Shown here piece after piece: positions 1,382 to 21,896 of a stretch of DNA of 22,682 nt. A program made the position numbers and the translations under genes. How positions within the stretch are numbered: the first letter of the stretch is position 1; each line of letters opens with the position of its first letter. The notes below the pieces were generated by a model. That model saw nothing but the letters and a program-made list of their open reading frames with translations, made no database searches and was not told the DNA's origin. Source of the stretch: a bacterium (lineage in GTDB: Bacteria; Vulcanimicrobiota; Xenobia; Xenobiales; JADMJV01). Location of the stretch: the NCBI GenBank assembly GCA_018780265.1, contig JADMJV010000021.1:64001-86682 (forward strand), given 5' to 3'.

Positions 1382-1456
1382 CTGCGCTGCTACTACGTTG
1401 GCACGGCCTTCCCTTTGGCAAGCAGGCCAGCGGCCGGCCACCGAGAACCGTGGCGG

Positions 1457-3847
1457 GTGAAATTGCAAGGCGGGCTGGCAGCAATGCTGGGGGGTTGGCT
1501 GCTACTGGGGTTGGCCGTGGCCGCCCCCTTATTTCCTCCCAACGACAACGACCAGGCAGCCGCCTGGCTGCGATCGCTGGGCCTGGGCGACCCGGGACGC
1601 GCCTCCAGTCGCTGGGAAGTGGCTCTGCAATTATCGCGTGCCCAAGAGCGCCTGCAGGCCGGTCTGGCCCCGCTGCTGAGCAAAACCGAACTGGAACAGA
1701 TGCAAAAATTGCTGGCCGCCTACCAACCGGAGTTGGAGCAAATGGGCGTGCGTCTGCAAACCCTGGAAGACCGGGTGGCCCAACTGGACGAAAGGGTGAC
1801 CGAGCAAGGCCGCATTCGCTTTTCGGGCACCTTTCGCTCCAGTTTTGTCAGTACCGGGGTCAGCAACACAGGCAATCCGCGCGGAGGTTTTGGCCCGGGC
1901 GCCCTCAATTATGACGATCTGGCCGGCAGTATCACCGGGGCTAACCTTACACCGCTCAATCCCTTAGGGGTCGAGCCTGTGATCGATTTTGTCACCGGCC
2001 GCCCACTCTTTAACGCCAACAGCTTCACCAGCGCCCTCCTGCTCAACGTGGAGGCCGACGTCTCCGAGGACGTGCTGGCCCAGCTTCGCCTCTACGCCTA
2101 CAGCTCCCAGGGGAACCCGCTGCTCGATGCCGTCTATGGTGTGCAACCGCCAACGGCGGCCAACCCTTTCGCGGCAGGCACTTCGCCCTTCACCGGCATG
2201 GGCCTGGACCAACTGGCCGTAACCCATATTCCCAGCTCGACCACCCTGACGGTGGGCAGTTTCTTGCCCCGCTACATGTCGCCCCAGGTTTTTTTGGGGG
2301 CCGTCAATCCGCGCGTGGGCGAACCGCGGGTACTGGAGAGTTACGGACTGCATCTGACCGGCGAACTGGACAACCAGCGCTGGGGCTGGGAAGTTTTTGG
2401 CACACGCCTGTATGACGGCAATCCCGGGGTCACCGCCCCCTACAAGAGCTTTGCCCTGGGTGCCGCCCTCAACTATCGCAATGCCGGCTGGTCAGCCACC
2501 CTCAGCGGCCTGCGCGCTTTTGACGACAACGCCACCGCCCCCGGTCTGACCGTGGGCCAGTATACCAACTTCAACCAGGTCGCCGGCCTGGGCACCATGA
2601 ACTGGGTCAACCCGCCCGGCCATTACGTGGGTCAACAAGGCGGTCCGGGCAGTCCGCTGGTGGCCGGGGTTGGCACCACCACCGACAATCGTCCCCTGGC
2701 CGGCATCCCCAACAGCGACGGTTTTGGGCCCCGGGCCACCTTGGGTCCGCAGCAACTGACCATGGGCAGCGTTCACCTGGAGTATGCGCCCGGTGAATAC
2801 ACCCTGAAGGGGGATTACGGACTGTCGGACTATCGACCCAGCCGCAACTCCAGCTTCTCTACGCGAGGCGCCCTGTGGCGCCTGGGGGCGGCCACCGAAC
2901 TGTTCGAGAACAGGCTCCATCTCGAACTCGACTACCGCTATACCGATGCCCGTTACGACCCCATGCTGCTGCAATTTGCCTCGCCCATCGCCGGACTGTC
3001 GCCGTTGCGGGTCTACCACCGCTTTCCCGATCGGGACCAGTTTTGGCAGTTCTGGTCGCTCCACAACACCAACGAATTTCCCCACAACCGTCAGGGTTTC
3101 TGGTTCAATACCCGCTACCAATACGACCCCGATGGTGCGGTCAGCTTCTCGTATCGCAACCTGACCCAGGTGAGCACCTCGCTGCAGGACGTTCGTTTCT
3201 TGCCTGGCGCGCTGGGCCCCACCACCCCCAACACGCTGGTGCTGGGATTTTCTCCGGGTTTCATCGACACCGTTTTTCGCGAGTTTTCTCCGCTCTCGTT
3301 TGACGCCAATCTGCAGCCGCTCGAGAATCCACGAGGCTACGTCTCCAGCTATGCGGCCAAGGTGGGCCACGTCTTTACGGGCACCCCCTGGAAGTTGGAT
3401 GCAGCCTACGACAGCTGGACCTTCCGTCGCTCCACCTCTCTGCCGGCGGCTTTGGGGGGATCGCAAAATCTGGTCGATCTCACCTATGCGGTGGGCGACC
3501 TGGCGGTGGGCTACCGCGTCGACGAAAATCTTATGCTGACACTGGGTTGCGAGCGCTCTACCATTCACGGACACTACGATCCGGGCGGGATTTACAACCC
3601 CCTGGCCATCGCCACCAACCGGAATGATTTCCTCACCCGCGACCTGGTTCAGACCAACCCCTACTTCAAACTGGACTGGAACGTGTCGGACGGAGTCCGT
3701 TTCGGCACCGAGTTGATGCTCTACCATACGGTCGACCGCGTTCCCACTTCGGTCACTCCCGGGCCCCTGAACGGAATCGGTTCCACCGCCCACCCCTTCA
3801 GTTGGGATGGACACCGATTCGGAACCACCCTGGAGGTGGATTTCTAG
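1457..3847 (+). CDS. Outer-membrane beta-barrel porin-like protein. It has a signal peptide, an N-terminal coiled-coil segment and a C-terminal beta-barrel ending in Phe. It is possibly a cyanobacterial OprB/Som-type porin, but no SLH domain is recognisable.
   Basis: The ORF 911..3847 overlaps the minus-strand cupredoxin gene at its 5' end. A plausible start is GTG 1457 (MKLQGGLAAMLGGWLLLGLAVAAPLF), or ATG 1484. There is a heptad-like segment LEQMQKLLAAYQPELEQMGVRLQTLEDRVAQLDERV. The long C-terminal region is rich in alternating aromatic/Gly/Asn/Thr beta-strand patterns and ends ...RFGTTLEVDF, the OMP C-terminal Phe signature. Confidence 0.6.
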   Translation: MKLQGGLAAMLGGWLLLGLAVAAPLFPPNDNDQAAAWLRSLGLGDPGRASSRWEVALQLSRAQERLQAGLAPLLSKTELEQMQKLLAAYQPELEQMGVRLQTLEDRVAQLDERVTEQGRIRFSGTFRSSFVSTGVSNTGNPRGGFGPGALNYDDLAGSITGANLTPLNPLGVEPVIDFVTGRPLFNANSFTSALLLNVEADVSEDVLAQLRLYAYSSQGNPLLDAVYGVQPPTAANPFAAGTSPFTGMGLDQLAVTHIPSSTTLTVGSFLPRYMSPQVFLGAVNPRVGEPRVLESYGLHLTGELDNQRWGWEVFGTRLYDGNPGVTAPYKSFALGAALNYRNAGWSATLSGLRAFDDNATAPGLTVGQYTNFNQVAGLGTMNWVNPPGHYVGQQGGPGSPLVAGVGTTTDNRPLAGIPNSDGFGPRATLGPQQLTMGSVHLEYAPGEYTLKGDYGLSDYRPSRNSSFSTRGALWRLGAATELFENRLHLELDYRYTDARYDPMLLQFASPIAGLSPLRVYHRFPDRDQFWQFWSLHNTNEFPHNRQGFWFNTRYQYDPDGAVSFSYRNLTQVSTSLQDVRFLPGALGPTTPNTLVLGFSPGFIDTVFREFSPLSFDANLQPLENPRGYVSSYAAKVGHVFTGTPWKLDAAYDSWTFRRSTSLPAALGGSQNLVDLTYAVGDLAVGYRVDENLMLTLGCERSTIHGHYDPGGIYNPLAIATNRNDFLTRDLVQTNPYFKLDWNVSDGVRFGTELMLYHTVDRVPTSVTPGPLNGIGSTAHPFSWDGHRFGTTLEVDF

Positions 3848-3867: not shown

Positions 3868-4830
3868 GTGCGCAAAATTGCCCTCAGGCTTGGACTTCTA
3901 TGCTGCGGATTGGTGGTAGGACTGGTTCTGGCCGAATTGGGCCTGCGCCTGGTCTTTCCCACCGACCTGACCAGTGGTGGCTTTCAGATGAATTTTGCGG
4001 CCGGCACCTTGAACAGTTTCGTGGCCGACGACGAATGCGGGTATTTGCCCAAGACCAACTCGGACGAATATAGCGAATTTGGCTGTCTGCACAACCCATA
4101 CAAACGGGAGAAATCTCCCGGCAAGAAGCGCGTCCTCTTCCTGGGCGACTCGGTTACCCATCGGGGTCGCCTGGTCCGGGCCTTGCAGTGTTGTTACGGG
4201 GACGAGCGCTACGAGTATTGGAATGCCGGTGTAGAAAGTTTTAATACTGCTCAGGAATTGGTGCTGTATCGTCGATTCAACGCCAAGATCAAGCCCGACC
4301 AGGTGATCCTGTCTTTCCATAACAACGATTTTATGCAAACTCCGCTGGTCTTTCATAAAGACGGCCGTCTGCAGATGCTCACCCCTCAGCGTGACCGCAA
4401 GCGCATCAACATGTGGTGGTTCGCCAATAGCTATTTTTATCGCTTTCTGATCGGCCTCTCCTGGCGGGGCGATAGCGAGCAAAAGGCCGTGGAGGTTCGC
4501 CAGACTCTGGCCGACATGCAGGCCCTGATGGCCGAGCAAGAGGTCGATTTTCGAGTCATTCTGCTGCCGCTCATGAAGCCCCTCAAAGACTGGGACGATG
4601 GCGAAAACTGGTCGCGCAAACAGAGCACCGCGATGTTCGAATCCCTCAAGATCCGCAGCTACGATCTGCTCCCGAGCCTGGAAGGCATGCTGGCCAAAGG
4701 CACCGCTGTCGAGGAAGAGGCGGGCGATGCCTGGCATCCCAACGATACGGCCGCGGCGGTCTTCGCTGCCGATCTGCAAAAACAGGGCCTACTTATTCTT
4801 GGTGACGAGAAACTTATCCAAAATCAGTAG
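3868..4830 (+). CDS. SGNH/GDSL-family hydrolase (esterase/acyltransferase-like) with an N-terminal membrane anchor.
   Basis: GTG start. N-terminal TM (IALRLGLLCCGLVVGLVLAELGL). Block I VLFLGDSVT (GDS motif with Ser nucleophile). Block V DAWHPND (DxxH). Confidence 0.65.
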   Translation: MRKIALRLGLLCCGLVVGLVLAELGLRLVFPTDLTSGGFQMNFAAGTLNSFVADDECGYLPKTNSDEYSEFGCLHNPYKREKSPGKKRVLFLGDSVTHRGRLVRALQCCYGDERYEYWNAGVESFNTAQELVLYRRFNAKIKPDQVILSFHNNDFMQTPLVFHKDGRLQMLTPQRDRKRINMWWFANSYFYRFLIGLSWRGDSEQKAVEVRQTLADMQALMAEQEVDFRVILLPLMKPLKDWDDGENWSRKQSTAMFESLKIRSYDLLPSLEGMLAKGTAVEEEAGDAWHPNDTAAAVFAADLQKQGLLILGDEKLIQNQ

Positions 4831-9114: not shown

Positions 9115-10023
9115 TTATGTGTGACTGAGACCCGACTCCAGGGTGCGAAAGTATTCCACCGTCGCCAGTTCGCGCAAGCAATAGGCCTGGTGCGAGGTCA
9201 GCGCAACCTCCGGGTTGGCGTCGGCGGGCAGTTGACTGCGCAGATAGCGCTCCCAGAAGCCGCCCAGATTGCACATTCGGGCTACCGCCAGGCGCGGGGG
9301 ATGCAGTCCGGTCGAAAATCGCGAGCGCAGGCGAGAGTGCTTTTCCACATAGATTCTGGCCGAGCGGGCCTTGGCCCGGGCCTGAGCTAAAGCTCCGGTA
9401 ATATTGGCCCGAGTAGGCGGCCTTTTGATGTGAAAGCCGATGGCCTTATAGTTGTTGTGCTTTTTAAGTCCAATGGCCATCAAGCGCAGGCCTAGCTCCT
9501 GATCCTCCCAGCCATACTCTTTAAAGTCCTCATCAAACAGGCCGGCTTCCTTGAGGTGCTGCAACTTGACCGAGACGTTGCTGGTCCAGAAGAAGGACGT
9601 AGAGATGTCAGCTGCGGTAAATTTCGGCGCCACCGGTCGCACAGGTTCGGAGATGTGATTGACCCAGCCGTTGCATACGCAGCGGTCAAACTGGTCGTGA
9701 ATGACCAGGTGCTCCTCAAGCAGACGAGGGTCGGCCAGCACGTCATCGTCGATATACAGCATCACCCGCCCACGAGCGGCACGAATCCCCGTATTGCGGG
9801 CGGCCGCCAGGGCCGAGTGGGGCTGCCACAAGTAAGTCAGGGGGTAGGGCAGCTCAGACCGAACCTCGCGCACCATATCGGCGGTGCCATCCTCGGAGCC
9901 ATCGTCCACCAGCACCACTTCAAAACGCTCGTGGCCAATCGTCTGGTCACACAGCGACAGCAGCACCGTTTTCAGAGTGGCCTGTCGGTTGCGGCTGCAA
10001 AGGCCCACCGTGATGTCGATCAT
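9115..10023 (-). CDS. Family-2 (GT-A fold) glycosyltransferase.
   Basis: MIDITVGLCSRNRQATLKTVLLSL...VVLVDDGSEDGT...RNTGIRAARG...YIDDD (DxD). Its start overlaps the stop of the upstream GT2 gene as ATGA (10020-10023). Confidence 0.8.
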   Translation of the reverse strand: MIDITVGLCSRNRQATLKTVLLSLCDQTIGHERFEVVLVDDGSEDGTADMVREVRSELPYPLTYLWQPHSALAAARNTGIRAARGRVMLYIDDDVLADPRLLEEHLVIHDQFDRCVCNGWVNHISEPVRPVAPKFTAADISTSFFWTSNVSVKLQHLKEAGLFDEDFKEYGWEDQELGLRLMAIGLKKHNNYKAIGFHIKRPPTRANITGALAQARAKARSARIYVEKHSRLRSRFSTGLHPPRLAVARMCNLGGFWERYLRSQLPADANPEVALTSHQAYCLRELATVEYFRTLESGLSHT

Positions 10024-10853
10024 GAGGAGAGTTCCTTCCAGCCCGCCTGCAGATAGGCCCGCTCCACTTCCAGCCAGCGGCGCACCAGGGCCGGCGCGGG
10101 CAGGCGAGAAAGGAGCGAATTCTTCCAGCGATTGGCAAAATGCAGGCCCGATCGCAACCACATGCGCAACGAAGGATAGCGGCGATATAGTTGGGCCGCG
10201 GCCTGCCCGTCCAGGGCGGCTACCCGCAGACGCTGCTGGTGATCGAGAGGCGGCTTCCAGTGATAGACATAAGTGTGCACGTCAAAAACTCGGGCTACTT
10301 TGAGCCGTTTCAGTCGAACGCCCAGTTCGGCGTCTTCCCAGCGGGCAAAGGATGGGTCGAAGAGACCGGATGTCATCAACAGCCGGCGTTCCAGGGAAGC
10401 ATTGCTGGTACACAGGTAGTTTTTGGAGAAATGCTTCCAGGGTTGACCCAGCGGCGGTAGGGGAGGGTAGAGCGGCTTGGGCACATTGACCACCGGGCCG
10501 CGCACCAGGCAGCCGGGATTGGCCGCCAAAAGGTGAGCGTGGCGCTGCAAAAAATCGGGCGGGATCAAGACGTCGTCGTCCATAAACAGAATGTGCCGAC
10601 CCCGGGCGGCTTCGATAGCCCGGTTACGAGCTCGACTGGTGCCTCCGTGGTCTTGTTGCAGGGCTCGTAGCGGCAACTGACTCTCAAATTCCCGCAAGAC
10701 TTCGGCGGTGTTGTCCTGGCTGCCATCGTCGACCACCAGGATTTCAAAATCGTCGAAGGGGTAATTTTGCAAAGTCAGATGCTGCAGCGTGAGACGCAAG
10801 GCCTGACTGCGATTGCGCGTGGGGATAACGAGGCTCAGGTTCACGGGCGCCAT
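10020..10853 (-). CDS. Family-2 (GT-A fold) glycosyltransferase.
   Basis: LSLVIPTRNRSQALRLTLQHL...ILVVDDGSQDNTAEVL...RNRAIEAARG...FMDDD. The ATG immediately follows the TAA of the upstream PPTase gene (TAAATG). Confidence 0.8.
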   Translation of the reverse strand: MAPVNLSLVIPTRNRSQALRLTLQHLTLQNYPFDDFEILVVDDGSQDNTAEVLREFESQLPLRALQQDHGGTSRARNRAIEAARGRHILFMDDDVLIPPDFLQRHAHLLAANPGCLVRGPVVNVPKPLYPPLPPLGQPWKHFSKNYLCTSNASLERRLLMTSGLFDPSFARWEDAELGVRLKRLKVARVFDVHTYVYHWKPPLDHQQRLRVAALDGQAAAQLYRRYPSLRMWLRSGLHFANRWKNSLLSRLPAPALVRRWLEVERAYLQAGWKELSS

Positions 10854-11552
10854 TTACGGACAGGCACGCCAGTGTCCTTCCGGTCCAAACAAATAGGCCC
10901 GAACCGGCTTCTGGGTAGGGCACACCAGGGCCACACTTACCTCGGGGAAGGGACAGTGGGGACGCGACAGATGCCAGGGTAGTGGCCTGCCTTGCAGGTC
11001 AAACAGTCCCCACCGATCGTCAAAATAGGTGAGGAACTGGTCCAGTGGATGGGTCAGGCCGTCACCCAGGGCTTTGATGTGGGCCTCCTTGGCTGTCCAC
11101 ACCTCGAAAAAGAAATGACGAGGGTTTTCGGACTTCTCTAACTGGAGGGCCTCCGCCGAGGCGAAAAACCTCTGTCCCAGCTTGAGAAACTCGACGCGCC
11201 GTCGCCGGTCTTCCAGGTCCAGTCCCAACTCGCCGTGGGCCGCAATGACCACCCCTGCATAGCCTTCAGAATGGCTTAAATTAAAGGTGCAACTGCCGTC
11301 TCCCAGATAGGGTTTTCCATGAGCAGCCTTGTCCCAGTGAAGATCCTCAGGAGGTCGATCCAGCCACTGGCTGACCAGACGCCGTAACAGGGCGCAGGCC
11401 ACCTGTTGACGGCGTCGGTGGTGGGGAAAAACCAGGCGCGCACAACGCTGCCGGTCGCTGTCGCTGAGCCAGGGGTCCAACTCGTCCTCGGTCCAGCCCG
11501 GATCGTCCAGTTCAAACCAGACCAGGCTGGTCTGCGAGTCAGCCTTCAACAA
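10854..11552 (-). CDS. Sfp/HetI-type 4'-phosphopantetheinyl transferase.
   Basis: FNLSHSEGYAGVV (motif 2) and WTAKEAHIKALG, the W/F-x-x-K-E-A-x-x-K PPTase motif 3. Length ~230 aa. Confidence 0.8.
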   Translation of the reverse strand: MLKADSQTSLVWFELDDPGWTEDELDPWLSDSDRQRCARLVFPHHRRRQQVACALLRRLVSQWLDRPPEDLHWDKAAHGKPYLGDGSCTFNLSHSEGYAGVVIAAHGELGLDLEDRRRRVEFLKLGQRFFASAEALQLEKSENPRHFFFEVWTAKEAHIKALGDGLTHPLDQFLTYFDDRWGLFDLQGRPLPWHLSRPHCPFPEVSVALVCPTQKPVRAYLFGPEGHWRACP

Positions 11553-12408
11553 CCAGTTGCAACGCCGTCTTGCCTACGTAGAGCAGGTCGAATGGACGGA
11601 TCTTAACCACCGAGGTGAGGGGCATTTCGGCGATCCACTCGGTGCCGTCGGTGCGCCTTTCCAGGGTGATGGCGGCGGCCACCGGGCGGGTGAACATGAC
11701 CTCGAAGGCTTTCTCCAGTTCACGCCATTTCCAGGCCATGCAGCGGTAGGGCAGAGCGTCCTCTTCGATCGTCAGGTCCTGATCCCACCAACTGGGGGTA
11801 TCGGGAAGAGGCTCGACACGGGTGCCGCCCAACTGAATCTGGAAACCTGTCATGGGCAGCCGCAGCCCCTGTTGGGCACCACCGAGTATCTCTATAAACA
11901 TGCTGGGCCGCGTCGACAGGGCAATTTTCCGTGAGGCCGACTTGGTATCGCCGCGAGACTCTCCCTCGCGTATGGGATTCCGATAGGCCAGGTCGTGGTT
12001 TACAACCGTGGTGCCGGTTCGGCGCGCTTCGTGAATCTGGCCGATGCGTTCGGGCGCCACACCCCCAAAGCGGAAATCAGCCTGCTGAATATCCAGCAGG
12101 CTGCTGCCTACCTTCACATGGTCTCCTATTTTCAACAGGGCTTCTTTGATGGGGAGACCGTTCACCTCGGTAGGATTGGTGTCTGATCGATGGGCCAGGC
12201 GATAGGCTTTGAGTTCGTCGTCCCAGGTCATGTCGGCGTGAATTCGGGAGATTTGGGGGTCGTTGAGGAGCACCCAGCCCGGCGCCCGATCTCCAGGGGT
12301 GCGGGCCCGCCCAATGGTCACTTCGGCGCTGTCCAGGGGGAACGTTCGACCCTTGTCGGGGCCTTGAGAAACCCGAACCTGCAGACCACAACTGAACATT
12401 AAAGCCAA
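11539..12408 (-). CDS. FHA-domain protein with an uncharacterised C-terminal domain.
   Basis: VTIGRARTPGDRAPGWVLLNDPQISRIHADMTWDDELKAYRLAHRSDTNPTEVNG is a canonical FHA (GR...SR.HA...NGT.VNG). TTG start at 12408 lies 5 nt after GGGAGGA. ATG at 12399 is the alternative. Confidence 0.8.
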   Translation of the reverse strand: MALMFSCGLQVRVSQGPDKGRTFPLDSAEVTIGRARTPGDRAPGWVLLNDPQISRIHADMTWDDELKAYRLAHRSDTNPTEVNGLPIKEALLKIGDHVKVGSSLLDIQQADFRFGGVAPERIGQIHEARRTGTTVVNHDLAYRNPIREGESRGDTKSASRKIALSTRPSMFIEILGGAQQGLRLPMTGFQIQLGGTRVEPLPDTPSWWDQDLTIEEDALPYRCMAWKWRELEKAFEVMFTRPVAAAITLERRTDGTEWIAEMPLTSVVKIRPFDLLYVGKTALQLVVEG

Positions 12409-12569
12409 AACAATCCTCCCTACGACGAACTCCCCGAAGGTTGGGGATTAGCCAAGGTTTTTGCCGAGACCTGCCGTCCCGGCCCAACCTTTTTGGGGAG
12501 TTTCTTTTCGTGGCCGCCAGTCGGGTGGATTCAAGGAAATGGCGGGCCTGTCTAAGAACATTTGCGGCC
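12409..12569. promoter_or_regulatory. Divergent intergenic region between the two FHA genes. It presumably carries both promoters. Contains a GGGAGGA Shine-Dalgarno for the minus-strand gene.
   Basis: 161-bp non-coding gap between opposed starts. GGGAGGA lies 5 nt upstream of the TTG at 12408 (minus strand). Confidence 0.3.
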
Positions 12570-13373
12570 ATGAGTGATGGGACCCGGGAATACAACTATC
12601 AAGATGTGGCCGACCGGTCCGCGCGCTATCCGGTGGTGGGAGCCCTCAATTTGCTGCTGGGCGAGAAGCCTGGCCGGCTGGTTCTGCTCGATGCGCAAAA
12701 TATCAAGATCGGTCGCGATGAAAGCTGCGACCTTCGCTTTGAAATCGATGGATTGAGTCGCAGCCACGCCTTGATCGAACGTCAGGCAGGGGGCGAGTAT
12801 GTGATTACCGACCTGCATTCCACCAACGGACTCTTCGTCAATGGCTACCAGGCCCATCAGCAGGCGTTGCACGACGGTGACCGCATCGCGCTGGGGCCCA
12901 ACCTGGTTTTCTGTTTCCGCGTTTTCCAGTTGGACGAAGCCATGGCCCTGGAAGGTCTGAGCGCAAGTAGTTCGCGTGACGTTGCCACCGGAGCCATCAC
13001 GGCCCCTTTCTTTGAGGAGATGTTGCAGTTCGAATTGGAGTTGGGTCAACGCCGCAATTTCGACGTGGCCCTCATCCATGTGCAGTGGGGCGCCTTTCAA
13101 CAGGGGCATGAAGAACGCCGGGTCCTGGATCTGTACGGCTATCTCGAATCGGTGAAGAAGCCCGGCTCCCTAACCGCACGACTGGGGGCACGCACCTTTG
13201 CCCAATCCATGAGCTACCTCTCCCGCTCTGAGGTAGACCGCCATACCGAGCAACTCTCCCGCCATCTGACCGAAAAGTTCAAGGACGCAACTTTTTTTGT
13301 GGGCTCTGCCTGCAGCCGCGAACTGGCCACTCCTAGCGCCACTAAACTGATTCAAAAAGCGTCTCAGCGCTGA
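12570..13373 (+). CDS. FHA domain fused to a degenerate (probably catalytically inactive) GGDEF-like domain.
   Basis: FHA: IKIGRDESCDLRFEIDGLSRSHALIERQAGGEYVITDLHSTNGLFVNG. GGDEF-like: DVATGAITAPFFEEMLQFELELGQRRNFDVALIHVQWGAF...LTARLGARTFAQ, where GARTF replaces GGDEF. Start chosen at the internal ATG 12570; the track's 12441 is a TTG. Confidence 0.75.
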   Translation: MSDGTREYNYQDVADRSARYPVVGALNLLLGEKPGRLVLLDAQNIKIGRDESCDLRFEIDGLSRSHALIERQAGGEYVITDLHSTNGLFVNGYQAHQQALHDGDRIALGPNLVFCFRVFQLDEAMALEGLSASSSRDVATGAITAPFFEEMLQFELELGQRRNFDVALIHVQWGAFQQGHEERRVLDLYGYLESVKKPGSLTARLGARTFAQSMSYLSRSEVDRHTEQLSRHLTEKFKDATFFVGSACSRELATPSATKLIQKASQR

Positions 13374-13374
13374 G

Positions 13375-14637
13375 ATGTGGCCCTTTGCCGAGCTCAAGGC
13401 GCTGGCCGGACAGGCCGGCAAGGTCGAGTTTCAGGCCGGAGAGATGCTTTTTCGTCAAGGCGATGCCGGCGACAAAGTCTTTCTTATCCGCCGCGGATTG
13501 GTAGAGATTTTTGCCGAAAATTCGGGCCGTCGCCGTCGCCTCAATTTGCGCGGCCGAGGCGAAGTTATCGGTGAGATGGCCCTGCTCGACGGCTTGGGAC
13601 GCTCGGCCAGCGCCGTTGCTCGAACTCAATTACAGGCCCGAACCCTGAGTCGTGACGTTTTTGAGCAACTTCTAACTCACAGACCTGCCCTGGTGCGCAG
13701 CCTGACCAGCCACCTCAGTCACCGCATGCGCGAATTGCAGGGCACTCTGAGCAGCGAACTGGACAAACGCGATCAGGAAGGCAAAGCCACCGGATTGTTC
13801 TCGATCGGTCCCTTTCTACTGGCCGAAAAATTGGGGGAGGGGGGGATGGGGGTGATTTACAGCGCCAGTCATCAGCGCACCGGGCACCCCTACGCCGTCA
13901 AAGTGCTGTCTGTCTCCAGCGAAGAGCAGAGAGCCCGATTTACTCGCGAGTGTGAATTTATGGCCCGCATGGTTCACCCCAACATCGTGCGCATCGATTC
14001 GGCCGGGACCGAAGGCTACTACGGTTACATGGCCATGGAGTTGCTGCGCGGTGAAACCTTGGAGCAGCGGCTCAAGCGTGGGCCCTTGAGCGAAGTCGAG
14101 GTGAGTCGCTGGTTTGTACCGGCCATGGAGGCTTTGGGCTACGCCCACGATATGGGGGTCATGCACCGCGACGTCAAGCCGGCCAATCTCTTTCTGACCC
14201 TGGATGGCACGCTCAAAATGCTCGATTTTGGGATCGCACGCCGCATCAACGGTCCCGAACTCACGGTGGCCGGCCGTTTTTTTGGCACCCCTCAATACCT
14301 TGCCCCGGAGCGCATCGGTGGTCAATCCAAAGCTCAAGAACGACAGTCTGACCAGTATTCCCTGGGCATTTCCATGTATGAGGCAGCGACCGGTCGCTGC
14401 CCCTTTGATTTCGACGATGTGGCCGAAGTGCTGGCCGCCCACCTGCATCGCTGTCCCACCCTGCCCAGTACTATCGCGGCCGTAGACCATGAGGTGGAGT
14501 TGGTCATCATGCGCCTGCTGGCCAAAGAGCCGTCCCGCCGCTATCCCAGCTTTGCAGCCGCCGCCCAGGCCCTGGCAGCGGCCACTTCGGGCAGCGTAAA
14601 ATCTATGACCACCGACTTTGGCACTCGCCGGGACTGA
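13375..14637 (+). CDS. Cyclic-nucleotide-binding domain fused to a Hanks-type Ser/Thr protein kinase.
   Basis: N-terminal cNMP-binding fold: FQAGEMLFRQGDAGDKVFLIRRGLVEIF...GRGEVIGEMALL...RSASAVA. Kinase: GEGGMGVIYSA (G-loop), AVKVL (Lys), HRDVKPANLFL, DFGIAR, GTPQYLAPE. The ATG is 1 nt after the upstream TGA. Confidence 0.9.
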   Translation: MWPFAELKALAGQAGKVEFQAGEMLFRQGDAGDKVFLIRRGLVEIFAENSGRRRRLNLRGRGEVIGEMALLDGLGRSASAVARTQLQARTLSRDVFEQLLTHRPALVRSLTSHLSHRMRELQGTLSSELDKRDQEGKATGLFSIGPFLLAEKLGEGGMGVIYSASHQRTGHPYAVKVLSVSSEEQRARFTRECEFMARMVHPNIVRIDSAGTEGYYGYMAMELLRGETLEQRLKRGPLSEVEVSRWFVPAMEALGYAHDMGVMHRDVKPANLFLTLDGTLKMLDFGIARRINGPELTVAGRFFGTPQYLAPERIGGQSKAQERQSDQYSLGISMYEAATGRCPFDFDDVAEVLAAHLHRCPTLPSTIAAVDHEVELVIMRLLAKEPSRRYPSFAAAAQALAAATSGSVKSMTTDFGTRRD

Positions 14638-14639
14638 CT

Positions 14640-16208
14640 TTACTTGCGGTGGTCCTTGAGAAATTGGCGCCAGCCCTCGGGTAGATGAGTGGCCGGTCGC
14701 CGATCAAAGGAGAGGGTGCCGTGGCCCATCATGGCCAGCACCGTTTGATTAAAAGCCTCGCCGGTGCGCTTGAGCTCGGGACAGGAGGCCGCCAGGCGCG
14801 GCTCACGCTGGAGTTGAGCCAGGAAGCTCCCCAGATCCACTACCGACTGAAAGTCATCAGCATCGGTCGTTTCGCTCTGATCCAGGCAGCGGCGCAGGGT
14901 TTCCTGGTGTCCCCCCTGGCTGAGACGGGTGAGACTGCGCCCCAGTCGGTCCAGGCTGGGCAACAACTGCTTTTGCAGCGCCTGCAGATCGACAGCCACC
15001 AGCGATTTGGCGGGCCGGCCCCGGGCGGCCGAACGCACCAGAGAGGTGCCAAATTCACGCGGGTTGGCAGGGAAGGAACTCTGACCAAACATCGACTCCA
15101 GGGGAAAACCAAAGCCTCGCACGGTGTGCTCGGAAACCACCGCCACCCGAGCCGATCCGGTCAACTTGCTGAGCGACTCCAGTTGCCCGCCGTTGCAAAC
15201 GTCGAGCACAATAGCCTCGGCCCCTTGCACGGTGCGGGCCAGGGCGTCAAAGGACAACCCGGCAGCACTTTGCTGCAGCCCGTGACCGGAGACGTAAACC
15301 ACATGGCGAGAGTTGGGCCATTGGCCGAGGTTTTTTTGCCACAGTTGCTCAAATTGAGACGCTCGGGGGCCATTTCCTACCACTTGATGGGACACATGCT
15401 TCCAGGTCGGGGCCACTTCGTCGTGCTGAGCCACCTTTTGTTTCAGCGCTTGCAGATGTTGGCCGGCGCTCTCGGCGCCGACCTTGGCCCCCAAGCCCCC
15501 TGCCAGCGTGAGCAGACCGCCCAAAACCAGGAGGGGTACGCTCAGAGGGCCTCCCTGCAAGGCCTGCACACAGGCGGTGCCGGCCACCACCAGGCCGGCT
15601 GCCCCCATCGCCCCCATGACCACTGGCAAAGCCGTATGCACGGCATCGCTGGCCACTCCTCCCGCCGCCGACAATCCGCTGACCTCAACCGGTGCCTGCG
15701 TCTTCTCGAGCATCTTTTCAAAGCGAGCGGGTTGGCCCTTGACGTGGCGAGCGATGTCGGGCACCGAGGCATCCCCGAAATAGGTGACCAACAGCGGTTG
15801 ATCGGAAGTCTGGAAAGTGTCCGAAGCGGCACTCCCCATGACCCCAAGCGACAGGGCAGGGTCGTTGATGGTGCCAAACTGCAGGCTCCCGCCGTCGCGC
15901 AGCGGCGTCCACTCATCGCTGGACGCTTTACGACCGTCGATCAGCGTGGTGCCGGTATGCAGGTCGCGCACCCAGAGCTGCCCCTCTTTCCACTGCCCCT
16001 CCGCCTGTTTGGGCTGCCCGGCCCAGCGCACCTGGCAATCAGGGTCCTGTCCAATGGTAAAGACCGAACCATCGGTAGGAAAACGCAGCGAGCCGCCATC
16101 TGGCGTCAGCAGACGCTGCCGCTCAGGCTGCAGGCTCAGCGAATGTCCGATGGACCTGGGCTGATTCCCCGGATTGGATTGCACACGCATAGACTCAGAG
16201 AATATCAC
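14640..16208 (-). CDS. FHA-domain membrane protein with a C-terminal caspase/metacaspase-like (clan CD, peptidase C14-like) domain.
   Basis: N-terminal FHA: SVFTIGQDPDCQVRWAG...LWVRDLHTGTTLIDGRK. There are two hydrophobic segments in the middle (PVVMGAMGAAGLVVAGTACVQAL; LLVLGGLLTLAGGLGA). The C-terminal blocks HVVYVSGHG and AIVLDVCNGG fit the metacaspase His (YSGHG) and Cys (D-x-C-x-x-G) dyad pattern. Confidence 0.7.
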   Translation of the reverse strand: MIFSESMRVQSNPGNQPRSIGHSLSLQPERQRLLTPDGGSLRFPTDGSVFTIGQDPDCQVRWAGQPKQAEGQWKEGQLWVRDLHTGTTLIDGRKASSDEWTPLRDGGSLQFGTINDPALSLGVMGSAASDTFQTSDQPLLVTYFGDASVPDIARHVKGQPARFEKMLEKTQAPVEVSGLSAAGGVASDAVHTALPVVMGAMGAAGLVVAGTACVQALQGGPLSVPLLVLGGLLTLAGGLGAKVGAESAGQHLQALKQKVAQHDEVAPTWKHVSHQVVGNGPRASQFEQLWQKNLGQWPNSRHVVYVSGHGLQQSAAGLSFDALARTVQGAEAIVLDVCNGGQLESLSKLTGSARVAVVSEHTVRGFGFPLESMFGQSSFPANPREFGTSLVRSAARGRPAKSLVAVDLQALQKQLLPSLDRLGRSLTRLSQGGHQETLRRCLDQSETTDADDFQSVVDLGSFLAQLQREPRLAASCPELKRTGEAFNQTVLAMMGHGTLSFDRRPATHLPEGWRQFLKDHRK

Positions 16209-16229
16209 GCCAGGCCCCGCCTTGCCAAA

Positions 16230-16793
16230 TCACGACGCAGTAGGAGTGCCCAGAGGCGCGAACAGGTCCTTTAGATCCAGGGTAAAGCCCCCATAACTCC
16301 AGCGATCCTCCTCGGCCAGGGCTGCTTCAAGCCGATAAGCCCCCCGGTCCAAGCGCAGATGCTCCAGCGTGCGCTCCTCGGGATCGACCAGCACATACTC
16401 CGCTACCCCACTCGCGGCATAGCGATTGAGCTTGCGAACCCGGTCGTGGGAGGCATTCGAGGGCGAGAGAACCTCTACCAACATCTGCGGGATGCCTTCA
16501 ATAAAGTTAGTCTTCACCATGCCAAACTGTTCCGGCAGCAGAAAGATTAAATCGGGCTGCACCGGGCTACAGCCGGGCATCAACAGGTCCATCGGGGCAT
16601 CGAAGACGGCCCCCAGGCCTCTCTGCTCCAGTTGATAAAGAAAAAATTGCAGTCGTCGTGACACAATCTGATGAACGGTTCGGGGACTGGGAGACATGAA
16701 GAGTTCTCCGTCGATAACTTCGTAGCGCCTGCCATCCTCGGGCAGGCCTAGATAATCCTCATAGGTCCAACGTCGGGGCTGAGAGAGGGTCAT
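16230..16793 (-). CDS. Uma2-family (DUF820) putative PD-(D/E)xK endonuclease.
   Basis: MTLSQPRRWTYEDYLGLPEDGRRYEVIDGELFMSPSP...VQPDLIFL...PQMLVEVLSPSN...YAASGVAEYVLVDP is a classic Uma2 layout. Start taken at the internal ATG 16793. Confidence 0.8.
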   Translation of the reverse strand: MTLSQPRRWTYEDYLGLPEDGRRYEVIDGELFMSPSPRTVHQIVSRRLQFFLYQLEQRGLGAVFDAPMDLLMPGCSPVQPDLIFLLPEQFGMVKTNFIEGIPQMLVEVLSPSNASHDRVRKLNRYAASGVAEYVLVDPEERTLEHLRLDRGAYRLEAALAEEDRWSYGGFTLDLKDLFAPLGTPTAS

Positions 16794-16891
16794 AGACCTC
16801 CATTTCACCACGCCTGTGCCATAGCCTGCTCGACTGGCATTGCAATCTGCCGCCAGGTAGGAATGCAGCTGGACTTGAGGTATCTTCAAAT
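16794..16891. promoter_or_regulatory. Divergent intergenic region between the Uma2 endonuclease and the DUF1998 helicase.
   Basis: 98-bp gap between opposed start codons. No convincing -35/-10 could be assigned by eye. Confidence 0.25.
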
Positions 16892-19354
16892 ATGAGCATA
16901 ACAACGGTCCTCGAGGAACTGCTGGCGATCGAAGGCAGACGCGACACGCTGACGCGCATTGAGAGATTTCCAGCCAGACCCGCCCGGTGGGGGCCGTGGC
17001 CCGGCGTGATCCGGGACGAACTCAAGCAAGCCCTGCGGGCCAAGGGGATCGAGCGTCTTTATTCGCACCAGAGCCAGGCCGTCGAAGCGGGCGTGGCCGG
17101 CCGCGATCTGGTGATTGTCACTCCCACGGCTTCGGGCAAGACCCTATGTTACAACCTGCCCGTGGTCCAGTCGGTGCTGCAAGAGGCCAGCAGCCGCGCC
17201 CTGTACCTTTTCCCCACCAAGGCTCTGGCTCAGGATCAGATGGCCGAATTGCACGACCTGTGCAAGCGGCTGGAAACGTCTGTACAACTCAATCTGGGGG
17301 CCTTCACCTACGACGGCGATACCCCCGCCGACGCGCGCAGGGCCGTACGTTCCAAAGCCCACGTGGTGATCACCAATCCGGACATGCTACACACCGGTGT
17401 ACTGCCCCATCACACCAAGTGGAGCCGCTTTTTTGGCAATCTGCGCTACGTGGTGGTGGACGAACTGCACACCTATCGGGGCGTTTTTGGCAGCCACCTG
17501 GCCAATGTCTTTCGCCGCCTCCAACGGATCTGTCAGTTTCATGGATCCAATCCCACCTTTATCTGCTGCAGCGCCACCATTGCCAATCCCAAGCAGTTGG
17601 CCGAGAGCCTGTTGGAGCGTGAGGTTGAGTTGGTAGGGGAGAGCGGCGCCCCTCAGGGCGAGAAGACCTTTCTCTTCTACAATCCCCCCATGCTGAACAA
17701 AGAACTGGGAATTCGCCGTTCTTACGTCAGTTCGGCCCGACGTCTGGCCGGAAAATTCATCGAGAAAGGGCACAAAACCATTCTTTTCACCGGTTCCCGC
17801 CTCAACGTGGAGGTGCTGACCCGGTATCTCAAAGACAAGTTTGAGCGTACTGAGGCCGAAGAGGGTCGCATTCGCGGCTATCGCGGCGGCTATCTGCCCG
17901 GCCTGCGTCGCGAGATCGAAAGCGGCCTGCGCCAGGGCACAGTGCTGGCCGTGGTCAGCACCAGCGCTCTCGAGCTGGGCATCGACGTGGGCAGCCTGGA
18001 TGTGGCCATCCTGGCCGGCTACCCGGGATCGGTGGCCAGCACCTGGCAGCAGGCCGGTCGGGCCGGTCGGCGTCAATCGGCCTCGGTGGTGGTCATGGTG
18101 GCCCGTAGCGATCCGTTGGACCAGTTTTTGATGCAGCATCCCGAGTATTTCTTTGAGAGCAGCCCCGAACACGCTCGCATCAATCCCGATAATCCGGCGA
18201 TTTTGTTGAGCCACGTGAAGTGCGCCGCTTTCGAACTGCCCCTGGAGAAAGGCGAAAAACTGGGCCGGGCCACCATCGACGAAATCGTGGCTTATCTGGT
18301 GGAGAAACAGGTGCTCCACGAATCGGGCGACCAGGTTCACTGGGCTCAGGAAGTCTATCCCGCCGACAACATTAGCCTGCGCAGCAGCGGTCCCGAGAAC
18401 TTCGTGATTATGGACATGGACCAGAACAACCGCGTCATCGCCGAGGTGGACTGGAATTCGGCCCGCTCCACGGTATATGAAGATGCCATCTATATGTGCG
18501 AGGCCAGAACTTACAACGTCAAACGCCTGGACTACGCCCAGCGACGCGCCTACGTGCGCGCCGTCGAGGTGGACTATTACACCGACGCCATCACCTCCAC
18601 GGCCGTCAAAGTGCTGGACAGTTTTCAACGCCAGTCGGTGCCGGCCGAAGAGCGGGTGGTCTACGAGCACGGCGAGGTGCACGTCAGTTGGCGCGTTTCG
18701 GGCTTTAAGAAGATCAAGTTCTACAGCCGCGAGAACGTAGGATTCGGCCAGGTCCACCTGCCCGATCACGAGATGCACACCACCTCGTTCTGGCTCACCT
18801 TGCGCGAAGAGTTTTTTAAGGACCTGCAACTCAATCGGGCCGACAGCCTGGAGGGAGTGTTGGGCCTGGCCCACTGTCTCCATCATCTGGCTCCCCTCTA
18901 CCTGATGTGCGACGCCAAAGATCTGGACCATTGCGTGGGCGAGCGTTCCGGGCGCTGGTTTGTGCGTCCCGAGGCATCCACTCAGGGGCGTTATGAGTTT
19001 GCCCTGGCTGCCGGCGATGACTCCGATAGCCAGGGTGAAAACTGGCTGCGCATCGGGGCCAACGAACCTGAGAAGCTGGAAGACTTGCCCACCGAGGTGT
19101 TGGGCCGCTTTGATCCCACCCTCTACCTTTATGACAATATCCCCGGCGGCATGGGACTGGCCTCTCAGCTTTTCGATCTCTTTCCCACATTGCTGGCCCA
19201 AACGTGTCAAATGCTGGAAACTTGCCCCTGCGATGAGGGCTGTCCCAGTTGCGTGGGCCCCCCGCACGAAGTAGGCGGACGGGCCCGAGCGGTGGCCCTT
19301 CAGATCGCCCGTGCCCTTCAAGAATTTGAAGCCGTGTCAGCCAGGCCTTCTTGA
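16892..19354 (+). CDS. DEAD/DEAH-box (DExH) helicase with C-terminal DUF1998 four-cysteine domain (MrfA/YprA-like).
   Basis: Motif I TPTASGKT, motif II VVDELH, motif III CCSATIANP, motif VI QQAGRAGRR. The C-terminal DUF1998-type cluster is ...HCVGE...TCPCDEGCPSCVGPP. Length is 820 aa. Confidence 0.9.
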   Translation: MSITTVLEELLAIEGRRDTLTRIERFPARPARWGPWPGVIRDELKQALRAKGIERLYSHQSQAVEAGVAGRDLVIVTPTASGKTLCYNLPVVQSVLQEASSRALYLFPTKALAQDQMAELHDLCKRLETSVQLNLGAFTYDGDTPADARRAVRSKAHVVITNPDMLHTGVLPHHTKWSRFFGNLRYVVVDELHTYRGVFGSHLANVFRRLQRICQFHGSNPTFICCSATIANPKQLAESLLEREVELVGESGAPQGEKTFLFYNPPMLNKELGIRRSYVSSARRLAGKFIEKGHKTILFTGSRLNVEVLTRYLKDKFERTEAEEGRIRGYRGGYLPGLRREIESGLRQGTVLAVVSTSALELGIDVGSLDVAILAGYPGSVASTWQQAGRAGRRQSASVVVMVARSDPLDQFLMQHPEYFFESSPEHARINPDNPAILLSHVKCAAFELPLEKGEKLGRATIDEIVAYLVEKQVLHESGDQVHWAQEVYPADNISLRSSGPENFVIMDMDQNNRVIAEVDWNSARSTVYEDAIYMCEARTYNVKRLDYAQRRAYVRAVEVDYYTDAITSTAVKVLDSFQRQSVPAEERVVYEHGEVHVSWRVSGFKKIKFYSRENVGFGQVHLPDHEMHTTSFWLTLREEFFKDLQLNRADSLEGVLGLAHCLHHLAPLYLMCDAKDLDHCVGERSGRWFVRPEASTQGRYEFALAAGDDSDSQGENWLRIGANEPEKLEDLPTEVLGRFDPTLYLYDNIPGGMGLASQLFDLFPTLLAQTCQMLETCPCDEGCPSCVGPPHEVGGRARAVALQIARALQEFEAVSARPS

Positions 19355-19438: not shown

Positions 19439-20015
19439 TCACCAGCACATTGCCCACCACCCAAGCAGAGCTCCCAGGGCCGCACCCGCCAAGATTTGGC
19501 GGAACCAATGCTCCAGTTGGGGGAGGCCCTGGTCACCAATTTTTCCGGAGGAAACGGCATCTTTGATGGGACCGATTACGGGAGCGTAAATCTGCTGAGC
19601 CAATCGCGTCACAAGAAAAACGAAATTATAGATTGACAGCGCCGTCGCCACCCTCCCGGTCAACACTGCGGATACTCGGCTCGAAATGGCACTGGAAGCC
19701 AACAGTGATACAACAGCATTGAGCGCCACTACCGCCCAAAGAGCTTGCACAAGAGAGTGTCCGTGTTGAGCCAGTGACTGGGTGGCACTGCGAATGATCC
19801 GCCAGTGCGCACAATCCCCCAACCGTCCAAATGGCGGTGGCGGCGACATTGGTCAGCAGGAAGGCCGCTGGCACGCCTTCCAGGCAAAACAATTTGATAC
19901 CCAGACTCCCCGGTGGTCTCAGCGAGCGCAGCAAAGTGCGCCACCCTTGCGGAGTCAACAGGCGGAGCAAAACTCTGAGCATCGATTGGCGGTGAGTATC
20001 TCCTTGGATATCCAT
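19439..20015 (-). pseudogene. Possible frameshifted and truncated N-terminal membrane-domain remnant of an ABC exporter. Low confidence.
   Basis: Two overlapping minus-strand ORFs lie in different frames (19626..20015 and 19439..19849). Concatenated, they read like the start of a type-I ABC exporter TMD: MLRVLLRLLTPQGWRTLL...LFCLEGVPAAFLLTNVAATAIW // LWAVVALNAVVSLLASS...GRVATALSIYNFVFLVTRLAQQ...ILAGAALGALLGWWAM. No ATPase domain follows. Confidence 0.25.
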
Positions 20016-20117
20016 CGACGTCGCCCTTTTTCCCCGTCCAGATGGTCCCCTGGTTCGGTCTCAGCAGGGGCCGCTGCGAGTGGCGCGAAAGCGGATCAGG
20101 TGTTACGTCACCTTCCA

Positions 20118-20501
20118 ATGCTCCTGAGAGTTTATCAATCCGTCAAAATACGCCACTTGCGTTGGGCTGCCGGGCTATTGGTGCTGTCTGTCTGCGGCTG
20201 CGGCGCTGGCATAGGAGCCATGACCTATGGCTGGCACGGCGCGCTGCTAGCCCCCTTGGGCCTGCTGGTCACGATGGCCCTGGCTTTACACCTCTTCATT
20301 GTCATCTCACTGGCCCTGGGAATGCGAAGCTATCGTAACAAGCAGCCCCGAGCCGCCCTCTTGTTCTTGTGGGTTGCGGCTGTTTTTCGCAGCTACGACC
20401 GGAGTGGCAAGGCCAACTCGGCCCTGGTGGAGTCACGCAACCTGGTGACTGCGCAAATGATGCAGAAGATGGCTATGAGCTTCCTGTCCCAGCCTCGCTA
20501 G
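20118..20501 (+). CDS. Small hypothetical membrane protein (127 aa, three predicted helices).
   Basis: Internal ATG 20118 of ORF 19782..20501. Hydrophobic segments WAAGLLVLSVCGCGAGIGAM, ALLAPLGLLVTMALALHLFIVISLALG and ALLFLWVAAVF. The 5' part of the long ORF (MALRMIRQCAQSPNRPNGGGG...) is not protein-like. Confidence 0.3.
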   Translation: MLLRVYQSVKIRHLRWAAGLLVLSVCGCGAGIGAMTYGWHGALLAPLGLLVTMALALHLFIVISLALGMRSYRNKQPRAALLFLWVAAVFRSYDRSGKANSALVESRNLVTAQMMQKMAMSFLSQPR

Positions 20502-20807: not shown

Positions 20808-21896
20808 GTGCAGGGCCATTATGACAGCAGCGGCCGGATCAGCCTGGATCTCGAATCGGCCGCGCGACGTATCGCCGGCAACCAGACGGTCAATCCCAGC
20901 GAGGCAGTGGCCAGTCTATTGGCCGGCCTGCTGGCATGGAACCCCACCAGCCTGCACCTCAACACTTGGGATGGCCTGGCTGTGGGAGCCACAGGGCTGC
21001 ACCGTCGTCCTGATATGCTGGAGTTGATCAGCGCTCGATTCTTGTCTAACACCGTCGATTGGGTCGCCGATCACCTCTGTCTCGGTCTCCACTCCTTGCT
21101 CCAAGGGGTCCGGTCAGCCGCCTTTCACTGCACAAACCCGGCTCACTCTCTGGGCCTTCGCCACCCCATAGAGGCCCAATGGCCCATGGCTCCACGCTGG
21201 CCTCGACATCTGCCCCCGGCCCCAAATCTAGACGCCCACTGGAGGCTGTTCCCGGCTCCCCCCCTCGACCTTGCTTGCCTGCGACGCCGCTTTCTTAAAT
21301 GTCACGTACCGCTGTTCATCAACGGTCAGCCCCTGCTCCAACACGCCCTGCAACCATCCACCCTGGAATACCTGTGGGAAAGTCACGATCTTCACCTACC
21401 CTCTCCCGACCAGGGGTTTGCGGCCGCCTCCCTTGGCTATGCGGGCGTGGAACTGGGTCAGGATCTGGGCCAGCCATTGCTCCTGAAAAAGAAGCACACC
21501 CTGATATTGGGACGCGACTTCGACGGCCCGGCGTGCAAAACTCCGCCCCTCTACCAACTCGAAAGACCCGAATCGATTTCCCTGTTTCGCTCAGGAACCG
21601 GTCACTGGGCATCCGTTCCTCGGTGCAGCTCGTGCGCCGCCCTGCAACTGAGAACCCGGCATGCCACACGGGTATTCGCCGTCGTCCATGGATTCACACT
21701 CGACCCCCTGGAGCTACCCGACTGGGAGCCTGGTTGGCGCGTCTGGGTGCCGTCCCCCGCCCACTACCTCTCGCCCGACCTACGATCCCTGATCCAGCCC
21801 AAAATCATTATGAAAAGAGCGGCGGAATCGCTGTCTCGTGCAAAAAAGCGCCTCCAGCCCCACCAGGCCAACCTGCTCAACTCTCTGCCGCGCTAG
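20808..21896 (+). CDS. Hypothetical protein (362 aa) with a Pro-rich central segment. No recognisable domain.
   Basis: Long ORF with coding-like third-position GC bias. GTG start. The alternative overlapping frames (21299..21916 +, 21319..21669 -) are Pro/Arg/Gly-rich and junk-like. The start site is uncertain. Confidence 0.4.
   Translation: MQGHYDSSGRISLDLESAARRIAGNQTVNPSEAVASLLAGLLAWNPTSLHLNTWDGLAVGATGLHRRPDMLELISARFLSNTVDWVADHLCLGLHSLLQGVRSAAFHCTNPAHSLGLRHPIEAQWPMAPRWPRHLPPAPNLDAHWRLFPAPPLDLACLRRRFLKCHVPLFINGQPLLQHALQPSTLEYLWESHDLHLPSPDQGFAAASLGYAGVELGQDLGQPLLLKKKHTLILGRDFDGPACKTPPLYQLERPESISLFRSGTGHWASVPRCSSCAALQLRTRHATRVFAVVHGFTLDPLELPDWEPGWRVWVPSPAHYLSPDLRSLIQPKIIMKRAAESLSRAKKRLQPHQANLLNSLPR

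Follow-up and report, generated by a model that had tools for sequence, protein, structure and literature searches.

A clostripain-family (C11) cysteine peptidase homologue of Eremiobacterota with a predicted membrane hairpin inside its fold and a degenerate FHA domain

The DNA analyzed here is a 22,682-nucleotide (nt) stretch of contig JADMJV010000021.1 (hereafter the window) from a bacterium of the Vulcanimicrobiota. It carries a minus-strand open reading frame (ORF) at 14640-16208. We propose, with a rough probability of 0.75, that the product is a cysteine endopeptidase of MEROPS family C11 (the clostripain family) whose fold is split by a membrane hairpin, that it bears a degenerate N-terminal forkhead-associated (FHA) domain, and that it is a cytoplasmic, tethered enzyme regulated by other means than linker autoprocessing. 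The original prediction, made from the letters of the window, had described an FHA-transmembrane-metacaspase-like protein and suggested that it is gated by an adjacent kinase. The ORF of 522 amino acids (aa) was present as that prediction described it, and its parts were assigned as listed below. Residue numbering (His309, Cys338, etc.) counts from GTG 16208 of the 522-aa ORF.

14640-16208, minus strand: whole ORF, 522 aa from GTG 16208 (ORF list; 25 homologues at 40-95% identity)
16199-16228, minus strand: promoter-like site, TTGGCA, a spacer of 16-18 nt and GATATT/TATTCT (consensus match only)
15840-16127, minus strand: N-terminal FHA-fold domain, degenerate (residues ~28-123), with Gln54, Gln65 and Gly86 replacing the Arg, Ser and Asn that bind phosphothreonine (pThr)
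15663-15800, minus strand: opening segment of the C11 fold, ahead of the hairpin (residues 137-182: strand 1, helix 1, strand 2), with 'LLVTYFGD' and the near-invariant Asp146
15474-15644, minus strand: Gly/Ala-rich hydrophobic helical hairpin (residues 189-245, turn QGGP), predicted two-pass membrane anchor
14988-15407, minus strand: catalytic core (residues 268-407), the portion of the C11 fold that follows the hairpin, with SGH309G, LD336xC338NGGQLE344 and VS359EH
15282-15284, minus strand: codon of the catalytic His309, from conservation and alignment with clostripain
15195-15203, minus strand: codons of Asp336, Val337 and Cys338; Cys338 is predicted to be catalytic and Asp336 corresponds in position to the S1-pocket Asp of C11 enzymes
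14643-14987, minus strand: C11-type helical C-terminal domain (residues 408-522)

Results

Assignment of the gene product to family C11

On predicted structure and profile comparison, the gene product is a clan-CD (caspase-fold) cysteine peptidase homologue belonging to family C11 rather than to the metacaspases. The AlphaFold2 (AF2) model of the whole protein had a mean predicted local distance difference test score (pLDDT) of 86.4 and a predicted template modeling score (pTM) of 0.83. When the model was searched with Foldseek, the top match was a C11 zymogen (6mzo, E=3e-7). Thus, similarity to the caspase fold was indeed found, and it pointed to C11. Figures for other clan-CD families were 12.9 for SAVED-CHAT, 11.3-11.7 for legumain, 10.4-11.0 for gingipains, 10.7 for metacaspases and at most 9.9 for caspases. 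As in C11 enzymes, the catalytic sandwich is followed by a helical C-terminal domain.

In sequence searches, the link to C11 reached significance only with a profile of the wider family. With the single window sequence, phmmer returned nothing from the PDB at E<=10, and a profile of 26 close homologues gave C11 matches that were only marginal (E ~1.5). The wider-family profile, built from 53 sequences, matched clostripain in four collinear segments (E=8.4e-14) and PmC11 at E=2.4e-8. Pfam searches led to the same family: Peptidase_C11 was matched weakly by all 26 close-family members (best E=1.7e-5) and by 45 of the 53 wider-family members (best E=7.3e-22). At E<=1, Peptidase_C14, CHAT and FHA were unmatched in the window protein. 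Peptidase family C14 (PF00656) and the CHAT proteases (PF12770) were rejected as families for the protein, since neither had a sequence match and the closest structural neighbors belong neither to C14 nor to CHAT/separase. The metacaspase-like label therefore holds for the clan and for the His-Cys dyad, which is intact and conserved; the family, however, is that of clostripain.

The two catalytic blocks on which that label was based, HVVYVSGHG (301-310) and AIVLDVCNGG (331-340), are present, with 29 residues from His309 to Cys338. Conservation of both residues in homologues could be verified: His309 and Cys338 are invariant in the 26 close homologues, and they form the sole invariant columns of the 53-sequence alignment, in which mean column identity is 16%. 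In these alignments, the His/Cys pair is conserved far beyond chance. Near-invariant besides the dyad are Asp146, Glu344, Ser359 and an acidic residue two positions before the Cys (Asp336 here), which is Asp or Glu in 46 of the 53 relatives. In the profile alignment, His309 pairs with clostripain His176, Asp336 with clostripain Asp229 and PmC11 Asp177, and Cys338 with clostripain Cys231 and PmC11 Cys179. In clostripain and PmC11, these residues are the catalytic dyad and the conserved S1-pocket Asp that gives C11 enzymes their Arg/Lys specificity (McLuskey et al., PMC4850288). His309 and Cys338 are thus predicted to perform catalysis. Cleavage after Arg or Lys is predicted from Asp336, which is placed two positions ahead of the Cys like its counterparts in the two characterized enzymes.

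A predicted membrane hairpin interrupts the protease fold

Two adjacent hydrophobic helices had been noted before, and they were found. Kyte-Doolittle hydropathy revealed a 57-residue hydrophobic stretch at ~189-245, which AF2 splits into two long helices (185-217 and 224-260) with the QGGP turn between them. Their claimed position between the FHA domain and the protease was not borne out, since protease residues 137-182 precede the hairpin. In the AF2 model, this segment forms two strands, 139-146 ('LLVTYFGD') and 174-181, with a helix (150-170) between them. By profile, its counterpart in clostripain is the stretch 48-103 ('VTIMYYCDADNNLE...LNLIALVDRS'), which comprises the first two strands of the C11 fold and, linking them, helix 1. 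Because this strand-helix-strand unit comes before the hydrophobic helices, the hairpin is placed inside the protease domain. The next profile block begins at clostripain residue 113, and ~67 profile positions, those of the hairpin, thus stand opposite ~9 clostripain residues. The Foldseek alignment to the 346-residue 6mzo extended over 444 columns, which is consistent with an inserted hairpin. According to both model and profiles, the hairpin is an insertion within the C11 fold, placed in the loop that joins strands 2 and 3. In 52 of the 53 family members, a hydrophobic segment of 24-57 residues (35-55 in most cases) is found N-terminal to the catalytic His, and one was also present in the FHA-less paralogue of locus L019.

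FHA domains are cytoplasmic, and the N terminus of the window protein has no hydrophobic signal sequence and no signal peptide. For these reasons, and because both halves of the protease fold must share one membrane side with the FHA domain, we infer that the whole enzyme is cytoplasmic and tethered to the inner membrane face. The sheet of PmC11 has the topology 4-up, 3-down, 2-up, 1-up, 5-up, 6-up, and its strands 5 and 6 carry the His and Cys at their C-terminal ends (PMC4850288, PMC4357240). With this topology, the loop that joins strands 2 and 3 emerges at the same sheet edge as the active site; by analogy, the active site would probably look toward the membrane.

The hairpin region also produced matches outside the proteases. 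Residues 189-274 (nt ~15387-15644) weakly matched the chlamydial inclusion-membrane protein IncM (NCBIfam E=3e-4; 19.5 bits vs. a cutoff of 1000), and the family profile at the hairpin weakly matched the membrane-inserting hairpins of the pore-forming toxins MakA and Hbl-L1 (E=0.03-0.7). These matches are probably compositional.

The activation linker is missing

The activation linker (loop L5 in PmC11) and a secretion signal are typical of characterized C11 enzymes, although they do not define the family, and both are absent from the window protein. Clostripain excises a nonapeptide linker, Arg181-Arg190, after the catalytic His (PMC4850288, PMC4357240), and in PmC11 the cut falls at Lys147 of loop L5, a short way past the catalytic His (PMC4850288); both enzymes require the cut for full activity. 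In the window protein, only 'GLQQSAAG' (about 7 residues, none of them basic) lies between GHG and the helix aligned with PmC11 'MEIDDLAKGL'. The PmC11 counterpart has 23 residues, among them the Lys147 cleavage site. The His-Cys spacing is 29 in the window protein vs. 46 in PmC11 and 55 in clostripain. Some homologues have a basic residue in the linker region, which is not conserved. Because the linker after the His is missing, control by linker autoprocessing appears unlikely. Control would more probably operate via the FHA-fold module, the membrane context or partner proteins.

The FHA domain of the window protein is degenerate

The claim of an N-terminal FHA domain was partly upheld. Fold comparison recognized an FHA beta-sandwich, and the aligned N-terminal domain matches Pfam FHA (PF00498) in 12 of 26 homologues. 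In the window protein itself, PF00498 is not matched at E<=1 and the pThr-contacting residues are lost. The profile of the 26 homologues matched the FHA domain of Mycobacterium tuberculosis FhaA at E=0.037. We aligned the domain with those of two neighboring FHA proteins, M. tuberculosis FhaA and the family members P0026 and P0007. The canonical 'GR ... SRxH ... SxNGT' reads 'GQ54 ... Q65PKQ68 ... HTG86TT' in the window protein, with Gln68 at the His position. Judged by this alignment, the domain is a decayed copy that has lost its pThr contacts. In P0026 and P0028, the pThr triad is complete, P0007 keeps the Arg and Ser, and the 582-aa long forms have an extra, second FHA domain with Arg and Ser, in which the Asn is replaced by Gln. 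Because sister proteins keep a canonical FHA, the ancestral fusion was probably a genuine pThr reader, i.e., an enzyme read out by Ser/Thr phosphorylation. The module of the window protein is probably a phospho-independent interaction or autoregulatory domain.

A conserved 'S-x-x-[TS]-D' loop (445-449) was considered as a pThr site for FHA docking and dropped, its +3 position not being conserved. The same profile search also yielded multi-FHA proteins (P0055, P0060, P0061, P0076 and P0079) with up to three canonical FHA repeats. They share the FHA subtype of the protease ('FP.DG..F.IGR ... VSR.HA ... DGQLWVRD..S.NGT'), and this similarity suggests a lineage-specific expansion of this FHA type.

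The adjacent kinase and the neighborhood of the gene

The following neighboring genes bear on the proposed regulation.

13375-14637, plus strand: Ser/Thr protein kinase with a cNMP-binding (cyclic nucleoside monophosphate) domain (Pfam cNMP_binding 7.7e-21, Pkinase 1.9e-51)
12441-13373, plus strand: canonical FHA protein of 310 aa (FHA310; Pfam FHA 4e-18), immediately upstream of the kinase
11539-12408, minus strand: FHA protein of 289 aa (FHA289; Pfam FHA 2.7e-08), syntenic neighbor of the short-form protease gene

A Ser/Thr kinase gene does abut the 3' end of the protease gene, as had been stated. It starts 2 bp after FHA310, with which it forms a two-gene cassette (12441-14637, plus strand) that is probably one operon. 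The C-terminal half of FHA310 (residues ~165-310) had no Pfam match. The explanation that survives best beside ours is built on this adjacency: the protein would be a C14 metacaspase/orthocaspase-like protease whose activity or localization is switched when Thr phosphorylation by the adjacent kinase is read by its own FHA domain. The clan-CD fold and the dyad are compatible with it, the kinase and a canonical FHA protein adjoin the gene in an arrangement that recurs in locus L005, and the canonical FHA domains of P0026, P0028 and the long forms make phospho-control plausible for the family. However, the pThr-contacting Arg, Ser and Asn are replaced by Gln54, Gln65 and Gly86 in the window protein, and the kinase and protease genes converge, with stop codons 2 bp apart, and are not cotranscribed. 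Moreover, of the other loci examined, only L005, which harbors a 67%-identical orthologue, has the cassette next to the protease gene as in the window; the cassette is absent beside the orthologues in L001-L003, L008, L009, L017 and L018 and beside all long-form paralogues. The case for gating by the adjacent kinase is thus weak. We consider such control through the protein's own FHA domain unlikely for the window protein and plausible for its sister proteins, and the explanation as a whole improbable.

The surroundings of the gene are otherwise stable. FHA289 is syntenic at 74-90% identity in L001-L003, L005, L008, L009, L017 and L018, i.e., in every related genome with enough flank. The short-form protease gene always lies between an MrfA-like DEAD/DEAH helicase gene and the gene of a 287- to 289-aa FHA protein, within a long syntenic block with carbamoyltransferase, ACT, two glycosyltransferase family 2 (GT2) and PPTase genes. 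The protease gene has 45-67% identity between genomes vs. 74-90% for its neighbors. It alone is inverted between related genomes (the window vs. L001/L002/L009 and L008/L017/L018), while the helicase and FHA289 genes keep their order and orientation. No inverted repeats flank the gene in the window, where one weak 22-nt pair was found, which is not flanking. The long-form paralogues have unrelated contexts, with no kinase.

A putative endonuclease gene of the Uma2 family (16230-16904, minus strand; Pfam 1e-30; PADLOC candidate PDC-S03, 2.5e-34) lies between the protease and helicase genes; it is unique to the window, and L005 has a 70-bp spacer there. No PADLOC defense-system model matched the protease or the two FHA proteins, and the PADLOC matches of the kinase, Uma2 and helicase are generic domain matches. 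In L004 (5927-7924) and L021 (5947-7935), a Peptidase_S9 (prolyl-oligopeptidase) gene lies directly upstream of the double-FHA long form on the same strand; because these contigs are closely related, the adjacency does not count as independent evidence. The two GT2 ORFs of the window (9115-10161 and 10020-10853, minus strand) overlap by ~140 nt as listed. The GT2 orthologue in L001 has 298 aa vs. 348 aa in the window, which suggests that the downstream GT2 gene probably starts at a later codon. Five sizeable ORFs, one of them of 978 aa, had no Pfam match (32-892, 911-3847, 3868-4830, 19782-20501 and 20808-21896); for 19782-20501 and 20808-21896, there was no PADLOC or NCBIfam match either.

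Distribution of the architecture and of the hairpin-bearing family

Among GTDB species representatives, all 12 of the loci found were from Vulcanimicrobiota/Eremiobacterota, many of them from class Xenobia. Two loci labeled as metagenome-assembled genomes of Burkholderiales are probably binning errors. Among the loci found, the combination of FHA and split C11 is confined to the uncultured phylum Eremiobacterota. Judged from the alignments, the inserted hairpin marks a larger family that is mostly FHA-less. An exhaustive profile search returned 703 cluster representatives at E<=1e-3, of which 129 also passed E<=1e-10; most members of the family have 370-490 aa and no FHA; the metagenome scan for FHA-less relatives was run with sub-alignment A4. 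The FHA-less paralogue MGE0487899.1 (P0171) is named 'clostripain-related cysteine peptidase' at NCBI.

In some FHA-less members with the hairpin (P0105, P0121 and P0161), a YidD domain (membrane protein insertion efficiency factor) occupies the N terminus, and additional hydrophobic segments are present. One YidD-bearing member, from Eremiobacteraeota, is named simply YidD by NCBI. Tandem arrays of two or three C11 paralogues occur in L024 (5881-12697), L035 (3-3672), L036 (1579-5293) and L044 (477-2978). In the downstream copy of L035 and L036 (663-675 aa), profile matches flank the hairpin positions but skip them, and hydrophobic segments are found near the C terminus.

These data bear on a second explanation, according to which the protein is not a general endopeptidase but a transpeptidase/ligase or a self-cleaving module that frees or activates the hairpin as a membrane-disrupting, holin- or pore-like effector in cell death or defense. 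It could draw on the toxin and IncM matches of the hairpin, on the faster evolution of the gene in comparison with its neighbors, and on the tandem duplication of paralogues. The matches, however, are weak and probably reflect composition, the hairpin is not flanked by a conserved basic cleavage site, and no conserved partner gene was found at 24 FHA-less family loci. Furthermore, the protein matches no PADLOC defense model, and its gene has a stable syntenic chromosomal position rather than one in a defense island. We regard this explanation as still less probable than phospho-gating of a metacaspase.

Start site and reading frame

The true start of the protease gene is probably ATG 16188-16190 (Met7), which would give a protein of 516 aa. 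Those homologues whose N termini are not longer, including one at 95% identity, start at the same Met7 or at an aligned Met. A promoter-like site is located just upstream of ATG 16190 and overlaps GTG 16208, which argues against GTG 16208 as the start; 3 such sites were found vs. 0.6 expected from shuffles. An mRNA starting from this site (16199-16228) would be leaderless or nearly so. On the opposite strand, a 529-aa ORF (14685-16274) was rejected as a shadow ORF: the homologues and the confident fold belong to the minus-strand product.

Discussion

The fold, the conserved dyad and the profile matches argue for a C11 peptidase split by a hairpin. Several observations weigh against this reading. 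The Pfam scan of the window protein gave a single Peptidase_C11 (PF03415) match, at E=0.0066 and with 16.5 bits vs. the gathering threshold of 25.8, and the family assignment therefore rests on predicted structure and transitive profile evidence. The Gly/Ala-rich hairpin could be a re-entrant or oligomerization element instead of two full membrane spans, and its flanks, with 3 Lys/Arg on each side, show no clear positive-inside signal. Finally, antisense shadow ORFs aside, no conserved neighbor or substrate candidate was found across the 24 FHA-less family loci beyond closely related contigs. That the protein is a catalytically inert pseudoprotease acting only as a membrane scaffold, as the missing linker, the degenerate FHA and the low Pfam score might suggest, is the least credible alternative and very improbable, since strict invariance across 53 diverged relatives is confined to His309 and Cys338, which together with the near-invariant acid before the Cys, Asp146, Glu344 and Ser359 make up the signature of a maintained active site.

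In the literature and structures that we examined, every characterized C11 protease of bacteria is secreted or located at the surface and is activated by an internal linker cut. The gene described here and its ~700 relatives suggest another use of the C11 fold: intracellular, fixed to the membrane by a hairpin and linker-free. Provided that its members are active, this group would extend the clostripain family by an intracellular, membrane-proximal branch, and the FHA-bearing members would offer a testable link between bacterial Ser/Thr-kinase signaling and caspase-fold proteolysis. To our knowledge, Eremiobacterota is a phylum with almost no experimental biology. The analysis also corrects annotation, from 'hypothetical' or 'FHA domain-containing protein' to C11-family peptidase. 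While the C11 family is already known, the split-fold FHA architecture is unusual and uncharacterized. A literature search for clostripain/C11 together with FHA or Eremiobacterota, or for such an architecture, found nothing; in the paper on conflict systems by Kaur et al., FHA figures solely as one of the effector domains, and clostripain is absent.

More speculatively, the family may be an undescribed class of caspase-fold proteases that are built into the cytoplasmic membrane by a hairpin in the catalytic domain, at the active-site edge, and that cleave membrane-proximal targets from the cytoplasmic side. Such a class would have expanded and diversified in Eremiobacterota in FHA, double-FHA, YidD and tandem forms, and its FHA branch might couple, or once have coupled, Ser/Thr-kinase signaling to regulated juxtamembrane proteolysis or a cell-fate decision. 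We offer this wider picture as a tentative one, well short of an even chance.

Comparison with known systems

Among FHA proteins, FhaA/Rv0020c, GarA/OdhI and the FHA-GGDEF protein DgcB bind pThr with conserved Arg, Ser and Asn, for which the window protein has Gln, Gln and Gly. Metacaspases prefer basic P1 residues, and their prokaryotic members are often fused to signaling domains. Metacaspases/orthocaspases (C14B) and CHAT proteases resemble the window protein in their clan-CD core fold and in the His-Cys order of the dyad, but they lack the C11-type C-terminal domain and the S1 Asp of the C11 'D-x-C'.

Clostripain of Clostridium histolyticum (C11; PDB 9CIP) shares the aligned His, Asp and Cys, the helical C-terminal domain and the predicted preference for basic P1 residues. 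It is secreted with a propeptide and needs Ca2+ (PMC4850288, PMC4357240). In contrast, the window protein lacks both a signal peptide and the linker, carries an additional FHA-fold domain and is only ~13% identical. Its hairpin contributes ~57 hydrophobic residues (~76 when counted as AF2 helices) where clostripain has ~9 residues. PmC11 and the C11 enzymes of gut Bacteroidales (PDB 3UWS/4YEC, 6MZO, 6N9J, 6NAG, 5DYN) share the 'D-x-C' (Asp177, Cys179) and the 'SE..G.P' block that follows it. They are secreted or lipoproteins and use Lys147 in loop L5 for activation, whereas the window protein lacks L5, carries an FHA domain and is predicted to be cytoplasmic and membrane anchored.

The closest counterparts are the FHA-less paralogues of Eremiobacterota/Vulcanimicrobiota (MGE0487899.1, i.e., P0171, and that of L019). 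They differ in lacking the FHA domain, some have an N-terminal YidD, and identity is 20-30%. With the window protein they share the phylum, the split fold, the place of the hairpin and the catalytic motifs, and they represent its immediate parent family.

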